Below are positions 502-11,757 of a DNA stretch of 11,799 nucleotides, piece by piece. The position numbers and the translations under genes were made by a program. Numbering within the stretch: the stretch's first letter is position 1; each line of letters begins with the position of its first letter. The DNA is taken from the UHGV virus genome UHGV-0101678; one strand, 5' to 3'. This DNA comes from a virus. The notes under the pieces were generated by a model. The model saw only the letters and a list, made by a program, of their open reading frames with translations. It had not been told where the DNA came from and ran no database searches.

Positions 502-624
502 GTCTTAAAAGGACTTCCTTTTGAGACACTTTCAACGTAACGGTAGAATGCACCCTCAAGGAGTCTTAAAAGGTTGTTTTTGGATTATGAGACAGCTAAA
601 CTTATGAGACTAACTTTTGAGACT
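502..624. promoter_or_regulatory. res/hix-like recombinase binding-site cluster and probable autoregulated promoter region upstream of the serine recombinase gene
   Basis: 26-bp imperfect palindrome at 502-527 (gtcttaaaagga-ct-tccttttgagac, arms 11/12 complementary). Second site 563-593 pairs gtcttaaaa with ttatgagac across a 13-bp spacer. Two further direct half-sites ttatgagac (602-610) and ttttgagac (616-624) sit just before the RBS and ATG at 639. The reverse complement TGTCTCATAA resembles the Tn3 resolvase half-site TGTCTGATAA as I recall it. Confidence 0.5.
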
Positions 625-638
625 TCTAAGGGGGATGT

Positions 639-1187
639 ATGGCGGTGATTGGTTATTGCAGGGTATCAACACAAGACCAGACTGTAGACAACCAGAAACT
701 ACAGATAGAGAAGGTTCACAAGGTCGATAAATGGTTTATTGATGAGGCTGTCTCAGGAGCTACAAAGGCCACCAGCAGAGATGGTTTTAGAGACATGATG
801 AACTATGTAAGGTGTGACGATACGTTAGTTGTGGTAGCTATTGACCGTTTAGGGCGTAATACCGTTGATGTGCTCTCTAACGTTGAGTCACTACAGACTA
901 AAGGTGTGAGAGTTGTTTCTTTACGTGAAGGTTTTGACCTGTCTACACCAATCGGTAAAGCAATGCTTACTATGATGGCTGGTTTAGCTGACCTTGAAAA
1001 AGACCTTATCAGTGAGCGTAGAAAAGCTGGTATTGAACGTGCTAAAGCTGAAGGGGTTCACATGGGAAGACCCGTAAAAGCTTCTTCAGAGACTGTAAAG
1101 ACGCTTATTTCACAAGGTAAAACGAGGTTGCAGATTCAGGAAGAGCTAGGAATCTCTAGAGCAACTTATTACAGACTTGCTAAATAA
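639..1187 (+). CDS. small serine recombinase, resolvase/invertase family (Hin/Gin/TnpR-like), 182 aa
   Basis: N-terminus MAVIGYCRVSTQDQ matches the catalytic-serine motif (compare Hin MATIGYIRVSTIDQ). AIDRLGRN motif present. C-terminal GRPVKASSETVKTLISQGKTRLQIQEELGISRATYYRL is a resolvase-type HTH. RBS aaggggg lies 4-5 nt upstream. Confidence 0.9.
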   Translation: MAVIGYCRVSTQDQTVDNQKLQIEKVHKVDKWFIDEAVSGATKATSRDGFRDMMNYVRCDDTLVVVAIDRLGRNTVDVLSNVESLQTKGVRVVSLREGFDLSTPIGKAMLTMMAGLADLEKDLISERRKAGIERAKAEGVHMGRPVKASSETVKTLISQGKTRLQIQEELGISRATYYRLAK

Positions 1188-2540: not shown

Positions 2541-2580
2541 AATTCTCATATAGAGCACTGATTATGAGAATGTTAAAGAG

Positions 2581-2613
2581 GCGATTTCCCCTGTCTGGGG
2601 TTATTCGCTTTTT
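2581..2613 (+). terminator. rho-independent terminator-like hairpin downstream of the methyltransferase gene
   Basis: gcga-ttt-cccc-tgtct-gggg-ttat-tcgc followed by ttttt. A diverged second copy of the same roughly 40-bp element is at about 2744-2783. Confidence 0.45.
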
Positions 2614-3002
2614 ACTGGAAGGGTTATTTTACAGAGGTTTTTCAAACCCCCTCAATAATAGAAACGAGCAACAAACGAAGAGCGAGAAATAAAATATTGA
2701 GACTGGTGAACGGGGTCTGTAAAGATTGTTTAAGAAGTCGGTTAAGAAGGTGGCTCTCCCTTTCTGGGGTTATCGCCTTGTATCTTAGTGAGTCCAGGAA
2801 GTTCTCTGTGAAGAGTCTTGTCAGTCCTTTATATTGGCTAATTACAACTTATTGAAAAATAAGAACTTTTAGAAATTACTGTCAGAGAGGTGAATACTTG
2901 ATAGATACAGCTTTCCGGTTCTGTCAAGCTATTTTTTAATAGATAGCACAAAATGCTAAAGATGCCCCTATACCATCACGTACAGGGGGTTTTGAAGGGA
3001 GT

Positions 3003-3179
3003 TTAACGGGGTTCTGTGTGGTCATTATCCTTAAGGTCAAGCGTCCATGTACGACCGAACAATCGGAACACAACAAGCACTCTGACGAGGACGTAGCGAA
3101 GTAGCAGGCCTGCAAGCAGTCCAACACCTCCACCAGTCCATACATCAGGTGACCCCAGTTCAGGAGGGAGATTTACCAT
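3003..3179 (-). CDS. candidate small hydrophobic protein (58 aa, one predicted transmembrane helix); speculative
   Basis: Minus-strand ORF with ATG at 3179 preceded by AGGA about 8 nt upstream. Product MVNLPPELGSPDVWTGGGVGLLAGLLLRYVLVRVLVVFRLFGRTW... has a Gly/Leu/Val-rich membrane-helix-like segment. Could be a chance ORF over a locally GC-richer patch. Confidence 0.25.
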   Translation of the reverse strand: MVNLPPELGSPDVWTGGGVGLLAGLLLRYVLVRVLVVFRLFGRTWTLDLKDNDHTEPR

Positions 3180-3234
3180 TAAATTTCCTGTGTGCAATGC
3201 AATACCATGTGACCAAATACATAGTTGATTCGGT

Positions 3235-3259
3235 TAGTTGGGCTTGTACCAACCCCTAT
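3235..3259. repeat. 25-bp direct repeat, copy 2 (tagttgggcttgtaccaacccctat)
   Basis: 24/25 identical to 156-180. Flanked by a short inverted repeat attcg (3228-3232) / cgaat (3260-3264). Upstream attcggtt also occurs at 110-117 near copy 1. Confidence 0.7.
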
Positions 3260-3346
3260 CGAATAAACCTCATAGCCACGCCTTTATATTTTCCCTCTCT
3301 CATAAAACCATTATACCACAGATGTTAATGAAATGTTAAAAAATGC

Positions 3347-3375
3347 TTGACATTAGTCTTTGAAACTGCTAAGAT
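3347..3375 (+). promoter_or_regulatory. sigma70-like promoter for the small-gene operon
   Basis: -35 ttgaca (3347-3352), 17-bp spacer, -10 taagat (3370-3375); followed by RBS gaggg and ATG at 3427. Confidence 0.4.
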
Positions 3376-3426
3376 TGTATATATGAGTTAACAGAATAAT
3401 AACATCTTATGAGGGTCAGAATATGA

Positions 3427-7123: not shown

Positions 7124-9172
7124 ATGAGCAAATTCACAGTTGATAGTTTTATCGTTGAGCTAAGCTTCAATGAAAACGTTGTTAAGGGCTTGCAAAGAGT
7201 TGAAAAGGCAGCTTTGCAGTCAGCACAAAGAATTGAACGTAATTTGAATAGAGCGTTTAAGGTCGATACCAAGCAACTTGACAGCAATCTGACAAGTTCT
7301 TTAGGGCAACTTGAAAGGAAGTTTAATAAGACCTTTGACAAGATTGAGCAGCGTCTTAAAAACACTAGAGCGTTTAAGATTAAAACGGAAATTGAGGATA
7401 CTTTAAAGCCACTTAGACAGCCAAGACAGCCACGAATTAGCGGCAACAGAGCAATCACAGCAGCTTATTCAGCGAATATGTCTAAGCTAAAAGGTCTTAA
7501 CCCAATTGTCGAGAAATACATTAAGAGTCAGTTTTATGGGCTAGCTAGTAAAGCTGGTCAGATGGATAACACCAAGTTTAATGAAGCCCTTGCTAAACTA
7601 AATTCAAGTGTAAGAGAAGCAATCACTAAAGCCAGAGGTCATACATCCACCAGCATTAATGGTGACAGAGCAGCTAGCAGCCTTGATAACCTGTCTTCGG
7701 CAGCAGTCAAAACAGCAGGTGCATTTATCTCAATGCAGGCTGTATTAGCCAGTTATCAGAAGATTATGGAAGTTGGTTTACAGCGTGCAAGTGCTGAACG
7801 TTCAATTGATTTCGTATTTGATAAAGATGCAGGTCAGGTAAAAGAGTTCACAAAGTCATTAGCTCAAACAACGGGTTTAGATATCGCTGAACTGCAATCA
7901 CAGTTTGCTGGTTTTGGTGCTTCAGCTAAAGAATCTATGGGTATTCAAGGTTCTGAAGAACTTTTTAAAAATATGATTGGCTATGCTCGTCTGATGGGGA
8001 GAAGTGAAGAAGAGATTAAGCGAGCACTGACAGCATTATCACAGATGGCTGGTAAGGGTCAGATTATGGCTGAAGAGCTTAAGGGGCAACTGGCTGAAGC
8101 TGTTCCTGGTATGGTGCAGGTGTTCGCTAAAGCAACCGGAAAGAGTGAACAGGAATTATTTGATGCCATGAAGAAGGGGGCTTTAAAATCTGCCGATACT
8201 CTTCAGAAGGTCACTCAGGAACTGAATAAACAAATCACCGCTAAAGGTGGCTGGAAAGCCATTTCAGAAAGTACTCAGGCACAACTAGGGAACCTGAAAA
8301 ACTCTTGGAATACCACGCTTGATAGTATCTTCAGAGGTTCTGAAAATGGTCTTCAAGATTTCACAAGAAGCCTAACAACGCTTTTAAACGCTCTTGGTGG
8401 AAGTGGTAAAAGTCTTGGTGAATCTCTTGGTAGCTTGATGACTGATATGTCACATGGTGTCGATTCATTGACTGATATTTCTTACAAGGTGAGAGGTTTC
8501 TTTGATGAGGTGACATTGGCTTATCGTGGTTTAACCGATGAACAAAAGAAAGTTGTTGATGCTTTAGGTTCTGGCTTGATTAATAGTTTAAAAGTCTTGG
8601 CTGGTGTTATTGCTGTGAATAAAGTTGTTGGTGTAACCAGAAGTATTTACGGGCTTATGACTGCTATCACAAGATTAGGTCAGGTCGCTGATACTACAGC
8701 GGATAACGTGAATAGAAAGAACGGGAAACCATCAAGGTTTAATCTTGGGAATATGCTATTAGCTGGTAGTGCTATCTATGCAGGTTATGAGAGATTAGCT
8801 TCTACGCCTGAACGAATGGAAGCACAAGCTAAATTACCAGAGCTGGCTAAAGAGTCTGGACTTAAGCCAGTATTTACTATGGACGATGTGAAAGGTTGGT
8901 TTAATAGTGCAGCTATGAATCTTGCTAACTTCCAGCATCCAGAATTAATCACCATGAGACAAGATGCGGCATTAACGAATACGGATATCCAAAGCCTGAG
9001 AGATGAAATTAGTGCTTTGAGCAAACGTATTCAGGAGCCTGTGAAAGTTTCACTTGGTGGTGAAGTTGCCATTAAACCAGATGAAACCAGCTTTATGACC
9101 TTTAGCAGTAATATCTACGACCAATATGCAGAAGCTACGCTATTAAGTTCATCATTCCCAGAAGATGATTAA
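7124..9172 (+). CDS. tail tape-measure-domain protein, 682 aa
   Basis: Central segment GYARLMGRSEEEIKRALTALSQMAGKGQIMAEELKGQLAEAVPGMVQVFAKATGKSEQELFDAMKKGALKSADTLQKV matches the conserved tape-measure core motif (PG-containing helix pair). Overall the protein is long, helical and low-complexity as tape measures typically are. RBS agaggtg 8 nt upstream. Confidence 0.75.
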   Translation: MSKFTVDSFIVELSFNENVVKGLQRVEKAALQSAQRIERNLNRAFKVDTKQLDSNLTSSLGQLERKFNKTFDKIEQRLKNTRAFKIKTEIEDTLKPLRQPRQPRISGNRAITAAYSANMSKLKGLNPIVEKYIKSQFYGLASKAGQMDNTKFNEALAKLNSSVREAITKARGHTSTSINGDRAASSLDNLSSAAVKTAGAFISMQAVLASYQKIMEVGLQRASAERSIDFVFDKDAGQVKEFTKSLAQTTGLDIAELQSQFAGFGASAKESMGIQGSEELFKNMIGYARLMGRSEEEIKRALTALSQMAGKGQIMAEELKGQLAEAVPGMVQVFAKATGKSEQELFDAMKKGALKSADTLQKVTQELNKQITAKGGWKAISESTQAQLGNLKNSWNTTLDSIFRGSENGLQDFTRSLTTLLNALGGSGKSLGESLGSLMTDMSHGVDSLTDISYKVRGFFDEVTLAYRGLTDEQKKVVDALGSGLINSLKVLAGVIAVNKVVGVTRSIYGLMTAITRLGQVADTTADNVNRKNGKPSRFNLGNMLLAGSAIYAGYERLASTPERMEAQAKLPELAKESGLKPVFTMDDVKGWFNSAAMNLANFQHPELITMRQDAALTNTDIQSLRDEISALSKRIQEPVKVSLGGEVAIKPDETSFMTFSSNIYDQYAEATLLSSSFPEDD

Positions 9173-9329
9173 TAATAGTCGAATGCTACGTGAATAAAGC
9201 AAAGTTAATACCCACACTAAAAATTATTTTTTACGTAGCTCACGCTTAACAGAGAAAACACTTATATATCAAAGGCTTGGTTAAAAATGATTAAAACACA
9301 CTAAGCCTTTGAAATCAAAGGAGAATTTA

Positions 9330-10103
9330 ATGATTTTTAGCAATCAAATCCGCTACAGTGGCAAAGATGGCGTTTACTTCCACTTAAGAGATAATGTAGA
9401 TGCCTTCTTAACCTTATCAGCAACTGAAAACATGGAATTTGACAGCCCTATGCAGGTGACTACACAGAACATGCAATCAGGGCAAACCGTCACAGATAAT
9501 GTGCAAAGAGCACCCAGAACAATCACTATTAGTGGTGTCGTCGTAGTTGGCTATGAAGGAAGCTTATTATTAACTCGTCAAGGCCAATTAGTAGAAAACT
9601 TCATTGACACTCTTGAAAGCTGGCGTGACCAGAAGCAGATTATTTCGGTCATCTGTAAAGATGGTATCAAGATTGATGACTCCATTATTACGAGTTTTAA
9701 AGCCTCTAAAGATGTTGGTATTTCAAATGGTCTAAGAATCCAGCTAACTTTTCAGGAAATCAACTTTAAGGCTATTGTAGGGCAAACTGATATTTCAGCA
9801 GCCACTGGCAAAACGGCTACCACAAATGATGGTGGCGCTACCAGCAAAAAGAATGCGGGTAACGTGACTACTGAACGCAATAACGCACCTATGCTGATGT
9901 GTCAGGAACTGTACAGTTACTCAGCGTCTGAGCTATCTGATGAAGCATTAAAAGCCCGTAGTAATTGCTCTAAAAATGTCACGGTGAAAGATGGTGTAAG
10001 CACCTTCACAGACTCAGCTAATTCAGGTGCTGCAAAGGTACTCAAGTCGGGTAATGCTTTACGGAAGTTTTCTGTGAATCCGAACAAGAAGGGCACTTAT
10101 TGA
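9330..10103 (+). CDS. hypothetical protein, 257 aa; candidate distal-tail-type protein by position only
   Basis: Start set at ATG 9330 (RBS aaggag 7 nt upstream) rather than the track TTG at 9309. Lies immediately downstream of the tape-measure gene. No motif recognised. Confidence 0.6.
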
Positions 10104-10135: not shown

Positions 10136-11656
10136 CTACAGTTGATAAGCGTCTATTTCTAGTAGCTCTTTTTCAGCAATTTCAAAGATAGATGTTCCAT
10201 CATTTAGAGGTAGCGGGTCTGTAGGAACAATTATTTCAGTGTCGTTCTGTAGCGTTACAGTTACCGAATCCTTACCCAATGTAAGCCCTTTTAGATGCTT
10301 GGACAAAATCAACTGACACTCGACACGACCCGCTTTAGTCATAAGGTCAATATCTTTAAGCTGGGGTAGTTCCTTATCAGTGAGTGAAGCCTTACGCCTC
10401 ATGTTATCAATCATGGTCTGTAGTTCTGTGCGCTTCTGGTTCAGTTCCTTAAGCTGAATTTTTAGTTCATCAATATCATCCATCTCAAGAAGTAGGGCGG
10501 TAGCTTTCTTGATTCTGGCTGTGACAATTTCAACCTCATGCTGTAGAGATGCAATCTTCCCCTCTGCTTCTCCATCATTCCCCACGTCAATCATCCCCAG
10601 AAAATTATCAATCATCCACTTATCAAACGGTTTACGCTTCAACGGTGGAACATCACAGCGACCGTCTAAGTGGTTATTGCACCTGTAGACCCCAGCATAC
10701 TTATTCTTAGTCCCTGTAGGGTGAACACTAGCCCCACACTGACACCGGAATAATCCCTTGAAGATGTTAATCGTTAATGGGTTATCACTTGCAGGTGTGC
10801 GACCTTTACGATTTTTATCGAGGATTTCTTGAGCTTTATTGAACGTTGAAGCATCTATAGCGGCTTCGTAGTAGTTCGGTATAGCGGGGCGGTCATTGCG
10901 CTGTGATGCTGGTAGTGTACCTCTCGTTGTCTCTGACCTTAAGATAGTACGCACAGAATGAACGCTAAAACCATTAGCATCTTTACGCCGTGAGAATGAA
11001 CTAATGTTATTAGCCTGTAGGTGACGGGCGATGTTATGCAGACTTTCACCATCTAGCAGCAGCTTGAAAATCAGTCTTACAGTCTCAGCGTGTTCATTGC
11101 ACTTGAAAGTATCGGGGTCAATCCATCCGGGAACCATCTTTGTAAGACGTTGTTCACCAGCAAGGGCAAGCTTTGCACGTTGTTTCCACTTCTGGCTAAC
11201 ACGGAAAGACTTCTGCTTAGACTCTTGATGAGCTACGTAGCTTTTAACGCGCTGGATGATTGAGATTCCTAAATCATCGGATAGAGCATCCCTTGTGTAG
11301 ATTAGCCCATCCTGTAGAGTGTGAATCTCGATACCATGAGCAATAATGCGATTCATCAAGGCTTCTGTTTCAAGATGTTCAAGGCGGCCTATGCGGTCGA
11401 TAGCTTCGACTAACAGAAGTGTACCTTCTGGAAACTCCCCAGACTCAATACGGGCTAACATGTCACCAAACTGACCAGTAAGATGCTTACCTTTGTAACC
11501 ACTCAACCCTTCATCACTGAAAGACGCTACTACTTGAGCATCGCTATTCTTCTTCAACCATTGCTTGAACAGGTCATTTTGTCGTCTGGTTGAATCTGCA
11601 CCTTCAGCGCCTTGTATGGCTGATGAGAATCTCAAGTATGTTATTACACTTCTCAT
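10136..11656 (-). CDS. large serine recombinase (integrase), 506 aa
   Basis: N-terminal catalytic domain (ITYLRFSSAIQ, EAIDRIGR), recombinase domain, a Cys-rich zinc ribbon (FRCQCGASVHPTG...YRCNNHLDGRC) and a C-terminal coiled coil give the typical large-serine-integrase architecture. Confidence 0.92.
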   Translation of the reverse strand: MRSVITYLRFSSAIQGAEGADSTRRQNDLFKQWLKKNSDAQVVASFSDEGLSGYKGKHLTGQFGDMLARIESGEFPEGTLLLVEAIDRIGRLEHLETEALMNRIIAHGIEIHTLQDGLIYTRDALSDDLGISIIQRVKSYVAHQESKQKSFRVSQKWKQRAKLALAGEQRLTKMVPGWIDPDTFKCNEHAETVRLIFKLLLDGESLHNIARHLQANNISSFSRRKDANGFSVHSVRTILRSETTRGTLPASQRNDRPAIPNYYEAAIDASTFNKAQEILDKNRKGRTPASDNPLTINIFKGLFRCQCGASVHPTGTKNKYAGVYRCNNHLDGRCDVPPLKRKPFDKWMIDNFLGMIDVGNDGEAEGKIASLQHEVEIVTARIKKATALLLEMDDIDELKIQLKELNQKRTELQTMIDNMRRKASLTDKELPQLKDIDLMTKAGRVECQLILSKHLKGLTLGKDSVTVTLQNDTEIIVPTDPLPLNDGTSIFEIAEKELLEIDAYQL

Positions 11657-11744
11657 GGTGATAAACTCTCATGCAATTGATTATCATTTAAAGATGAACT
11701 TATAAACGTTATGGCTAATGCTACAATGCCGAATAGCTACAATA

Positions 11745-11757
11745 CAATGACCCTTGA
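11745..11757. repeat. 13-bp direct repeat, copy 2 (caatgacccttga), at the compositional boundary next to the integrase gene
   Basis: Exact match to 88-100. Immediately followed by GC-rich sequence (11758-11799, about 60% G+C by count), unlike the rest of the window. Confidence 0.3.

Follow-up and report, generated by a model that had tools for sequence, protein, structure and literature searches.

The recombinase gene and the sites upstream of it

The DNA considered here (hereafter, the window) consists of 11,799 nucleotides of the virus genome UHGV-0101678 and carries an island located between yciI and tonB of Escherichia coli. At positions 502 to 1187 of the window, a gene for a small serine recombinase is preceded by an array of paired half-sites, which is laid out like the res region of a site-specific resolution system and labeled accordingly in Table 1. 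The gene product contains a Resolvase domain (PF00239, E 8.1e-42, residues 3-140) and an HTH_7 domain (PF02796, E 2.1e-7, residues 143-179), and in an alignment of 17 family members the catalytic residues Y6, R8, S10, D69, R70, R73, E120, and R127 are invariant, as are G143 and R144 of the GRP arm, with P145 being nearly so. Comparison with E. coli variants of the gene gives dN/dS values of 0.08-0.12, indicative of purifying selection, and the combination of invariant catalytic residues with a dN/dS of about 0.1 shows that the gene is functional and not a relic. The closest proteins of solved structure, as judged from phmmer searches, are Gin (E 9.5e-23, 34% identity), gamma-delta resolvase (4.9e-21), Tn3 resolvase (9.7e-21), and Sin (1.3e-14), and all matches to NCBIfam models remain far below the respective cut-offs, as exemplified by the Mpi invertase model (105 bits vs. 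a cut-off of 272). A protein database search returned 986 relatives at E <=1e-20, some of which carry the term "invertase" in their database names. Comparison with sequenced phages revealed no DNA similarity for bases 1-1300 and no phage protein of more than 41% identity.

Table 1. Features of the recombinase locus and the second recombinase gene of the window (positions refer to the window).
Feature	Position	Strand	Description
res site I, presumed crossover site	502-527		Inverted repeat I10, 12-2-12, 26 bp; arms 11/12 complementary (92%); left half 502-513 GTCTTAAAAGGA, centre 514-515 CT, right half 516-527 TCCTTTTGAGAC
Central dinucleotide of site I	514-515		CT; predicted position of the 2-nt staggered cut
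Second promoter-like site	521-549	+	TTGAGA-17-TAGAAT; 10/12 in consensus scan; -35 in right arm of site I
res site II, putative accessory site	563-593		Inverted; halves 563-574 GTCTTAAAAGGT and 582-593 GGATTATGAGAC; spacer 7 bp, 31 bp total
Candidate recombinase promoter	574-602	+	-35 TTGTTT 574-579 (in site II spacer), 17 nt, -10 TAAACT 597-602
res site III, putative accessory site and operator	599-623	+	Halves 599-610 AACTTATGAGAC and 612-623 AACTTTTGAGAC, head-to-tail
Shine-Dalgarno-like sequence	628-635	+	AAGGGGGA; read from sequence; ends 3 nt before ATG
Small serine recombinase gene	639-1187	+	182 amino acids; N-terminal catalytic domain, C-terminal helix-turn-helix after GRP arm
Large serine recombinase gene	10136-11656	-	Domain scan

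The whole res region spans 122 bp (502-623) and lies within 137 bp upstream of the ATG at 639, with the centers of sites I and II being 63.5 bp apart. Site III coincides with the direct repeat D9, whose 13-nt copies are 92% identical, with the halves spaced 13 bp apart, and it ends 15 bp before the ATG. A first-pass annotation of this DNA had called the gene a serine recombinase and had described a 26-bp imperfect palindrome and at least four further half-sites containing GAGAC within 140 bp upstream of its start. The recombinase, the palindrome, and the position of the array are fully borne out, and four further half-sites are indeed present, but only three of them contain GAGAC; the remaining one (563-574), which is oriented like the left arm of site I, reads AAGAC on the other strand. 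The label "res/hix-like" used in the same annotation is appropriate for the 26-bp geometry of site I, but nothing else in the region is hix-like. Note that GAGAC by itself shows no enrichment over the window (22 occurrences vs. 19.3 expected), whereas the extended half-site TTWTRAGAC occurs 8 times vs. 0.81 expected, a number reached in none of 200 shuffles, and 6 of these 8 copies fall into positions 502-623.

Conservation of the site layout in homologous loci

For comparison, 80 loci encoding relatives of 48-98% identity were taken from one genome per species, and several more were added from E. coli and from plasmids. Each locus was mapped with its own outer half-site motif, and the formal count of the layout covers 66 loci and 1320 shuffled controls. 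In most loci, the best palindrome of the 12-2-12 type among the 260 bp preceding the gene is found 118-160 bp before the start codon, and the full layout, consisting of two inverted pairs followed by a direct pair, is present in 55 of the 66 loci, compared to 7 of the 1320 controls. Thus, the homologues, whose lack of such upstream motifs the first-pass annotation had listed as potential evidence against its proposal, present the opposite picture. The layout is kept down to about 50% protein identity and ranges from Enterobacterales to Aeromonas, Pseudomonas, Halomonas, and Methylobacterium. Across the 55 loci, site I is an inverted repeat of 26 bp, site II extends over 29-33 bp, and the halves of site III are 12-14 bp apart in the same orientation; the order is likewise constant, with site I being distal, followed by site II and then by site III, which ends just before the ribosome-binding site.

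Within the clade with GAGAC-type half-sites, conservation is concentrated in the sites themselves, with values of 0.90-0.93 for the arms of site I, of 0.92, 0.89, and 0.79 for the left half, spacer, and right half of site II, and of 0.83 and 0.92 for the two halves of site III. The left flank (0.49), the spacer between sites I and II, the leader, and the central dinucleotide of site I are poorly conserved (0.46-0.59), the dinucleotide showing the lowest value within site I (0.46). CT, AG, TC, GT, AC, TT, and AT all occur at this position among the homologues, and such free variation across the family fits a crossover dinucleotide that needs to match only between two partner sites. Cleavage at the center of site I to yield 2-nt overhangs is known from Tn3 and Sin (PMC2428073).

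As a separate observation, an E. coli locus whose recombinase is 98% identical to that of the window (L002, 1980-2005) has the same site I arms around the center AG, the reverse complement of CT.

Co-variation with the recognition helix and helical phasing

The outer bases of the half-sites differ between lineages, and they vary together with the recognition helix of the respective recombinase. GAGAC is associated with the helix IS(K/R)AT(F/Y)YRL in Enterobacterales, CGAAC with KAGKTT(I/V)YRF in Lelliottia, Scandinavium, and Citrobacter, GAGCC with IS(P/A)ASVKRAC in Aeromonas, Pseudomonas, and relatives, and TGCACA or CGGACA with V(S/A)R(Q/A)T(I/V)(I/M)R in Crenobacter, Craterilacuibacter, and Pseudogulbenkiania. 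Such a pattern would be expected of a helix-turn-helix domain that reads these bases, and the co-variation in four lineages, together with the phylogenetic footprint, provides strong indirect support for a recognition of the array sites by the recombinase encoded next to them.

A further regularity is seen in the spacing of the sites. The distances between the centers of sites I and II fall into three classes of 51.5-54.5 bp (34 loci), 62.5-63.5 bp (17 loci, including the window), and 73.5-74.5 bp (4 loci), with none in between. With about 52, 63, and 74 bp, the classes amount to 5, 6, and 7 helical turns, differ by steps of about 10.5 bp, and conform to the rule stated for res sites of the Tn3 family, in which the distance between sites I and II amounts to 4-7 helical turns and phasing is required (PMC12217951). 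A spacing by whole turns would be needless for a simple operator array, but is needed for a synaptic complex in which two res sites are wrapped around each other.

Search for partner sites

A scan of the window that tolerated up to three mismatches revealed only one copy of the 26-bp site I, in agreement with the failure of the first-pass annotation to find an inverted copy. The search for a partner suggested there was extended to 36 loci spanning the family, none of which has a further site I within 10 kb on either side (threshold, >=18/26 matches), and to 5,426 complete E. coli genomes, where site I was detected in 184 cases, with a median of one copy and a maximum of two per genome. This number compares with 180 genomes carrying the recombinase-bearing left end of the island, and no partner site was found in E. 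coli beyond one site per recombinase gene. In the one two-copy E. coli genome that was checked, the first copy belongs to an island that has inserted into mdtG, and no second copy is encountered within 20 kb of this one.

Relatives of the system are also encountered on plasmids. The Halomonas plasmid pIGAnt1 of just 3.6 kb has four annotated genes, including those for a replication-type protein and for a homologue equipped with a complete tripartite site, the homologue on a conjugative plasmid of Neisseria gonorrhoeae is annotated as "Res", and a 27-kb E. coli plasmid also carries a relative. The presence of one site per replicon, the conserved accessory sites, and the relatives on plasmids all point to resolution, which the first-pass annotation had favored over a local inversion, and leave inversion unsupported.

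A broken version of the array was noticed on the 27-kb E. coli plasmid just mentioned, pEC224_4 (L085, 3840-3976), where a 52%-identical homologue retains sites II and III, and site I is missing. A Tn3-family transposon, TnAs1, ends about 20 bp upstream of site II, so that this res is interrupted in the spacer between sites I and II, which has been reported as a preferred target of res-hunting transposons (PMC12217951).

Candidate promoter elements and probable autoregulation

The candidate promoter of the recombinase gene is intimately connected with the array, as its -35 element is part of the spacer of site II and its -10 element overlaps the start of site III. The bases T574, T575, G576, A598, and T602 of this promoter are invariant in 16 aligned loci, including some with another half-site motif. 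The AGAATGC block of the second promoter-like site (521-549) is kept in only a part of the clade. Both candidate promoters are overlapped by recombinase half-sites. Since the conserved -35 and -10 elements and the region of the transcription start fall within the stretch covered by sites II and III, binding of the recombinase should repress its own gene, and autoregulation is therefore regarded as probable. A similar situation is known from Tn3, where promoter elements are located inside res, the resolvase represses its own gene, and the TnpR protein was originally named as a repressor (PMC7157771).

Altogether, the order of sites expected in the first-pass annotation, namely a crossover site followed by accessory and autoregulatory sites, agrees with the conserved order, the co-variation, the phasing, and the location of the -35 and -10 elements within the array, but the third site turned out to be a direct instead of an inverted repeat.

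A probable resolution module and the alternatives to it

We interpret positions 502-1187 as a self-contained site-specific resolution module, composed of a tripartite res region and the gene for its cognate small serine recombinase, and not as an invertase system, and assign a probability of roughly three in four to this interpretation. As judged from the sequence features described above, the recombinase would bind to the array, catalyze the recombination, and control its own synthesis. Recombinase dimers would fill the inverted 26-bp site I, the inverted site II with its longer spacer, and the head-to-tail site III. Two directly repeated res regions on one supercoiled molecule would then intertwine via the subunits bound at the accessory sites, and only afterwards would the subunits at site I cut at the central CT and exchange strands. 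The outcome would be the deletion of one copy, equivalent to the resolution of a dimer to monomers. In the context of the island, such a reaction may convert multimers or tandem copies of the excised, replicating, or transduced element to single units, and this multimer resolution is considered the most likely task of the module. It appears plausible because of two precedents: the island SGI1 also contains a tripartite res and a resolvase, and the restored system eliminates SGI1 multimers (PMC12217951), while full-size capsids can take up phage-inducible islands as multimers of three copies (PMC12597102).

Several points weigh against this interpretation. The similarity of the protein to Gin is about as high as that to the resolvases, so the sequence alone does not assign it to the invertase or resolvase subclass. 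Because site III is a direct repeat, unlike in Tn3, the synaptic geometry of the latter is not simply transferable to this system. The -35 and -10 hexamers of the window are weak, with just 7 of 12 bases agreeing with the consensus (counted by hand), which is below the threshold of the promoter scan. The island harbors no replication gene recognizable in domain and PHROGs scans, so that a replicating circle which multimerizes would be hypothetical. Two metagenome contigs of about 11.5 kb which contain a relative are identical over their overlap, but show no terminal overlap and are not circular, and a third one has a terminal overlap of only 11 nt, as seen by eye, giving no evidence for circles. 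Finally, the conserved left-end DNA of the island is present in 592 E. coli genomes, 180 of which contain the recombinase; about two thirds of the related E. coli islands lack the module, which is thus dispensable.

Among the alternatives, the one that survives best, albeit as an unlikely one, is that the protein acts mainly or only as a transcriptional repressor of its own gene, and perhaps of downstream island genes, with the sites serving as operators and recombination being irrelevant by now. This would agree with the coverage of the conserved -35, -10, and start region by sites II and III, with the lack of a terminator-like site on the + strand between the recombinase gene and the downstream gene for a Dam-type methyltransferase, and with the history of the name TnpR in the case of Tn3 (PMC7157771). 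A mere repressor would, however, have no need for an exact 12-2-12 site located 5-7 whole turns upstream of the promoter-proximal sites, as observed in 55 loci, nor does it account for invariant catalytic residues in a gene under purifying selection or for the retention of a complete site on a plasmid of 3.6 kb, where resolution is an obvious need. Repression is also compatible with resolution, and the resolution module favored here includes both functions.

A DNA invertase of the Hin/Gin type, for which the 26-bp site would represent one end of an invertible segment with its partner outside the window, is very improbable. The hix and gix sites of such systems are 26 bp long, with one arm of 12 bp on each side of a non-palindromic core of 2 bp, and site I indeed shares this 12-2-12 geometry and a non-palindromic center. 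Moreover, Gin is the best match of solved structure, if only by a small margin over gamma-delta, and "invertase" appears among the names of the relatives. Yet the identity to Gin amounts to only 34%, the score against the Mpi invertase model remains far below its cut-off, no second site was detected in the window, in the 36 loci, or in E. coli beyond one per recombinase gene, and the four conserved and phased accessory half-sites are a feature of resolvases.

It is similarly improbable that the small recombinase assists the large serine recombinase in excision or integration at tonB, be it as an accessory protein or as a directionality factor. Both genes reside in the same island and would be arranged divergently around the attachment site in an excised circle, at a distance of about 400 bp. 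The idea was rejected because related islands at the same tonB site do without the small recombinase: one of them (L084) has no recombinase gene between yciI and the Dam gene, and several matches at the tonB site that span the whole window list just one recombinase family protein. In addition, the module occurs together with a tyrosine integrase in another island (L089) and on integrase-free plasmids, and the site array is dissimilar to the att core AATGACCCTTGA. A chance origin of the motif cluster in AT-rich intergenic DNA, which might be surmised from the lack of enrichment of bare GAGAC, is refuted by the TTWTRAGAC statistics, the conservation of the layout, and the co-variation of the motif with the protein, and its probability is negligible.

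Comparison with known recombination systems

The locus shares many properties with the resolution systems of Tn3 and gamma-delta. The small serine recombinases are of comparable length with the same order of domains, each is encoded directly downstream of a single res, and the res comprises three sites within about 120 bp (114 bp for Tn3 res), with site III proximal and site I distal to the gene. Further common traits are a longer spacer in site II than in site I and a distance of whole turns between sites I and II, and the candidate promoter elements of the window likewise lie inside res, from which autoregulation would be expected (PMC9943657, PMC7157771, PMC12217951). However, the proteins are only distantly related (phmmer E about 5e-21 to 1e-20), and site I consists of 26 bp with a variable, non-palindromic center, whereas that of Tn3 contains 28 bp and recombines at TA. 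Moreover, the sites of Tn3 are all built of inverted 12-bp motifs, in contrast to the head-to-tail direct repeat at site III in the window, and instead of being accompanied by a Tn3-family transposase, the module is carried by an integrative phage-like island bounded by a 12-bp att repeat.

It is this third site which links the system with Sin (and the beta recombinase), because two half-sites in direct repeat are what defines site II of Sin (PMC2428073), and such a pair is found here at the accessory site nearest to the gene. Both systems have an inverted crossover site, and Sin is known to serve in plasmid dimer resolution. Nevertheless, Sin res is made up of two recombinase sites and a bend introduced by HU/IHF (86 bp), which is replaced by the inverted site II in the window, and the similarity of the recombinase to Sin (E 1e-14) is weaker than that to gamma-delta or Gin.

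A parallel in terms of the genomic context is Res of SGI1, which also represents a serine resolvase module on an integrative, helper-dependent island and not on a transposon or plasmid, with res located upstream, boxIII in the proximal position, and the promoter overlapping boxII (PMC12217951); the center of its boxI is non-palindromic as well (AC). The SGI1 res differs in being modeled on that of Tn3, with a boxI of 28 bp, a distance of 51 bp between boxes I and II, and a weakly symmetric boxIII. The helper of SGI1 is a conjugative plasmid, whereas the phage tail genes of the island in the window suggest a phage as its helper. Hin, Gin, Cin, and Pin belong to the same protein superfamily and share the properties of the crossover site already mentioned, but a second inverted site and an invertible segment are absent here, and accessory half-sites are present instead.

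With three sites as in Tn3 and a head-to-tail site as in Sin, the system matches neither of these types and has the appearance of a hybrid between them. We may tentatively extend this notion to the family as a whole, although we find it rather doubtful in this complete form: the family would constitute a natural Tn3/Sin hybrid, in which the dimer at the inverted site II bends the DNA in place of HU/IHF and site III synapses like site II of Sin, and the cassette would have been captured by phage-satellite-like islands of about 11 kb in Enterobacteriaceae, where it would cut head-to-tail multimers delivered in full-size helper capsids to single integrable units. An equivalence of Tn3 site III and Sin site II has been proposed before (PMC2428073), and the hybrid, if true, would realize it in nature.

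In the searchable literature, whose coverage is incomplete, no description was found of this recombinase family or of the island, nor of a resolvase in a phage satellite, but such an arrangement may already be catalogued. The module itself is well supported but fairly ordinary, with the head-to-tail site III as its one unusual layout detail. It does not overturn the current understanding and should be of use mainly to specialists on serine recombinases and in the annotation of small phage-like islands. In practical terms, a res label with subsites becomes available for a stretch of roughly 120 bp that has passed as "intergenic" in at least 180 complete E. coli genomes, and for its counterparts in many other Proteobacteria. 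The combination of a Tn3-like plan of three sites with a Sin-like site would provide a natural test case for models of the topological filter exerted by accessory sites, and the four lineages of recognition helices and half-sites (GAGAC, CGAAC, GAGCC, and TGCACA/CGGACA) represent candidates for orthogonal pairs of recombinases and sites. Moreover, a resolvase implies a multimeric or tandem stage in the existence of small phage-like islands, which is a testable clue to their life cycle.

The host island and the exchange of the cassette

The first 100 bases of the window are 100% identical to the DNA upstream of tonB in E. coli, and its end corresponds to the start of tonB. A 12-nt direct repeat, AATGACCCTTGA, at 89-100 and 11746-11757 bounds the island of 11,657 bp, which is inserted exactly at the start codon of tonB, with an intact tonB at 11747. 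The island is integrated at this site by the large serine recombinase, which is separate from the small one. The native tonB promoter (1-88) now faces into the island, where the sequence ATG ACC CTT GAA TGA represents a stub of four codons, and the island DNA preceding the intact tonB shows a promoter-like motif, GTGATA-18-TATCAT, at 11658-11687. A Fur box was searched for in this DNA at up to three mismatches to the 19-mer consensus without a match, and only a resemblance by eye is noted (TGATTATCATT).

Domain scans of the island identified genes for a tape-measure protein, a Dit-like tail protein, an HNH protein, and a Dam-type methyltransferase, and they revealed no transposase domain among the ten largest open reading frames. 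Of ten open reading frames scanned against PHROGs, six match no phage family. With tape-measure and Dit-like tail proteins (7124-10103), but no detectable capsid, terminase, or replication gene, the island resembles a phage satellite.

The combination of res and recombinase gene behaves as an exchangeable cassette, as indicated by comparison with other islands. In relatives without the module, blastn finds no similarity to positions 467-1284 of the window, and this segment is replaced by about 500 bp with no open reading frame of more than 60 amino acids and no annotated gene (L083, 6285-6792; L084, 6342-6850); some of these islands occupy the same tonB site. As seen by eye, the homology with the module-less relatives reaches somewhat further in from both sides, and the left junction in one of them (L083) still shows a degraded trace of site I, CTCTTAAAAAAT...ACAGACAC. 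Conversely, the cassette is found in other small islands (L087, L088, and L089 were compared), which also contain genes of the defence type. One of them contains a large serine recombinase and AbiTii, while that of L089 combines it with a tyrosine integrase, SIR2, a HigB-like toxin, and a Peptidase_M78 protein. A recombinase gene identical to that of the window in all nucleotides is present in the enterotoxigenic E. coli strain E24377A (NC_009801.1; L091, 2014-2562), whose island is also located between yciI and tonB, and which is usable for experiments as a sequenced reference strain.

The non-coding stretches at 101-501, 1188-1871, and 2541-3426 are unusually long, with about 400-890 bp each, and none of them shows a match to Rfam or to a tRNA. 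Conservation of 79-94% is seen for positions 183-466 in several hundred E. coli genomes, also in islands lacking the recombinase, and this segment contains a 26-nt direct repeat (236-261 and 282-307) ending in AGTCTCTTTT.

The gene downstream of the recombinase (1872-2540, + strand) codes for a Dam-type N6-adenine methyltransferase with a C-terminal HTH_7 domain of the resolvase type that comes with a GRP arm. Aligned with the DNA-binding domain of the small recombinase, this HTH_7 domain shows 35% identity (E 6e-6) but has a different recognition helix, STSYRIAQR, which suggests a Dam-type methyltransferase tethered to a specific site. A protein of 233 amino acids from Shigella sonnei, P0116, contains Resolvase, Dam, and HTH_7 domains and probably arose by a deletion which joined the genes for the recombinase and the Dam-type methyltransferase.

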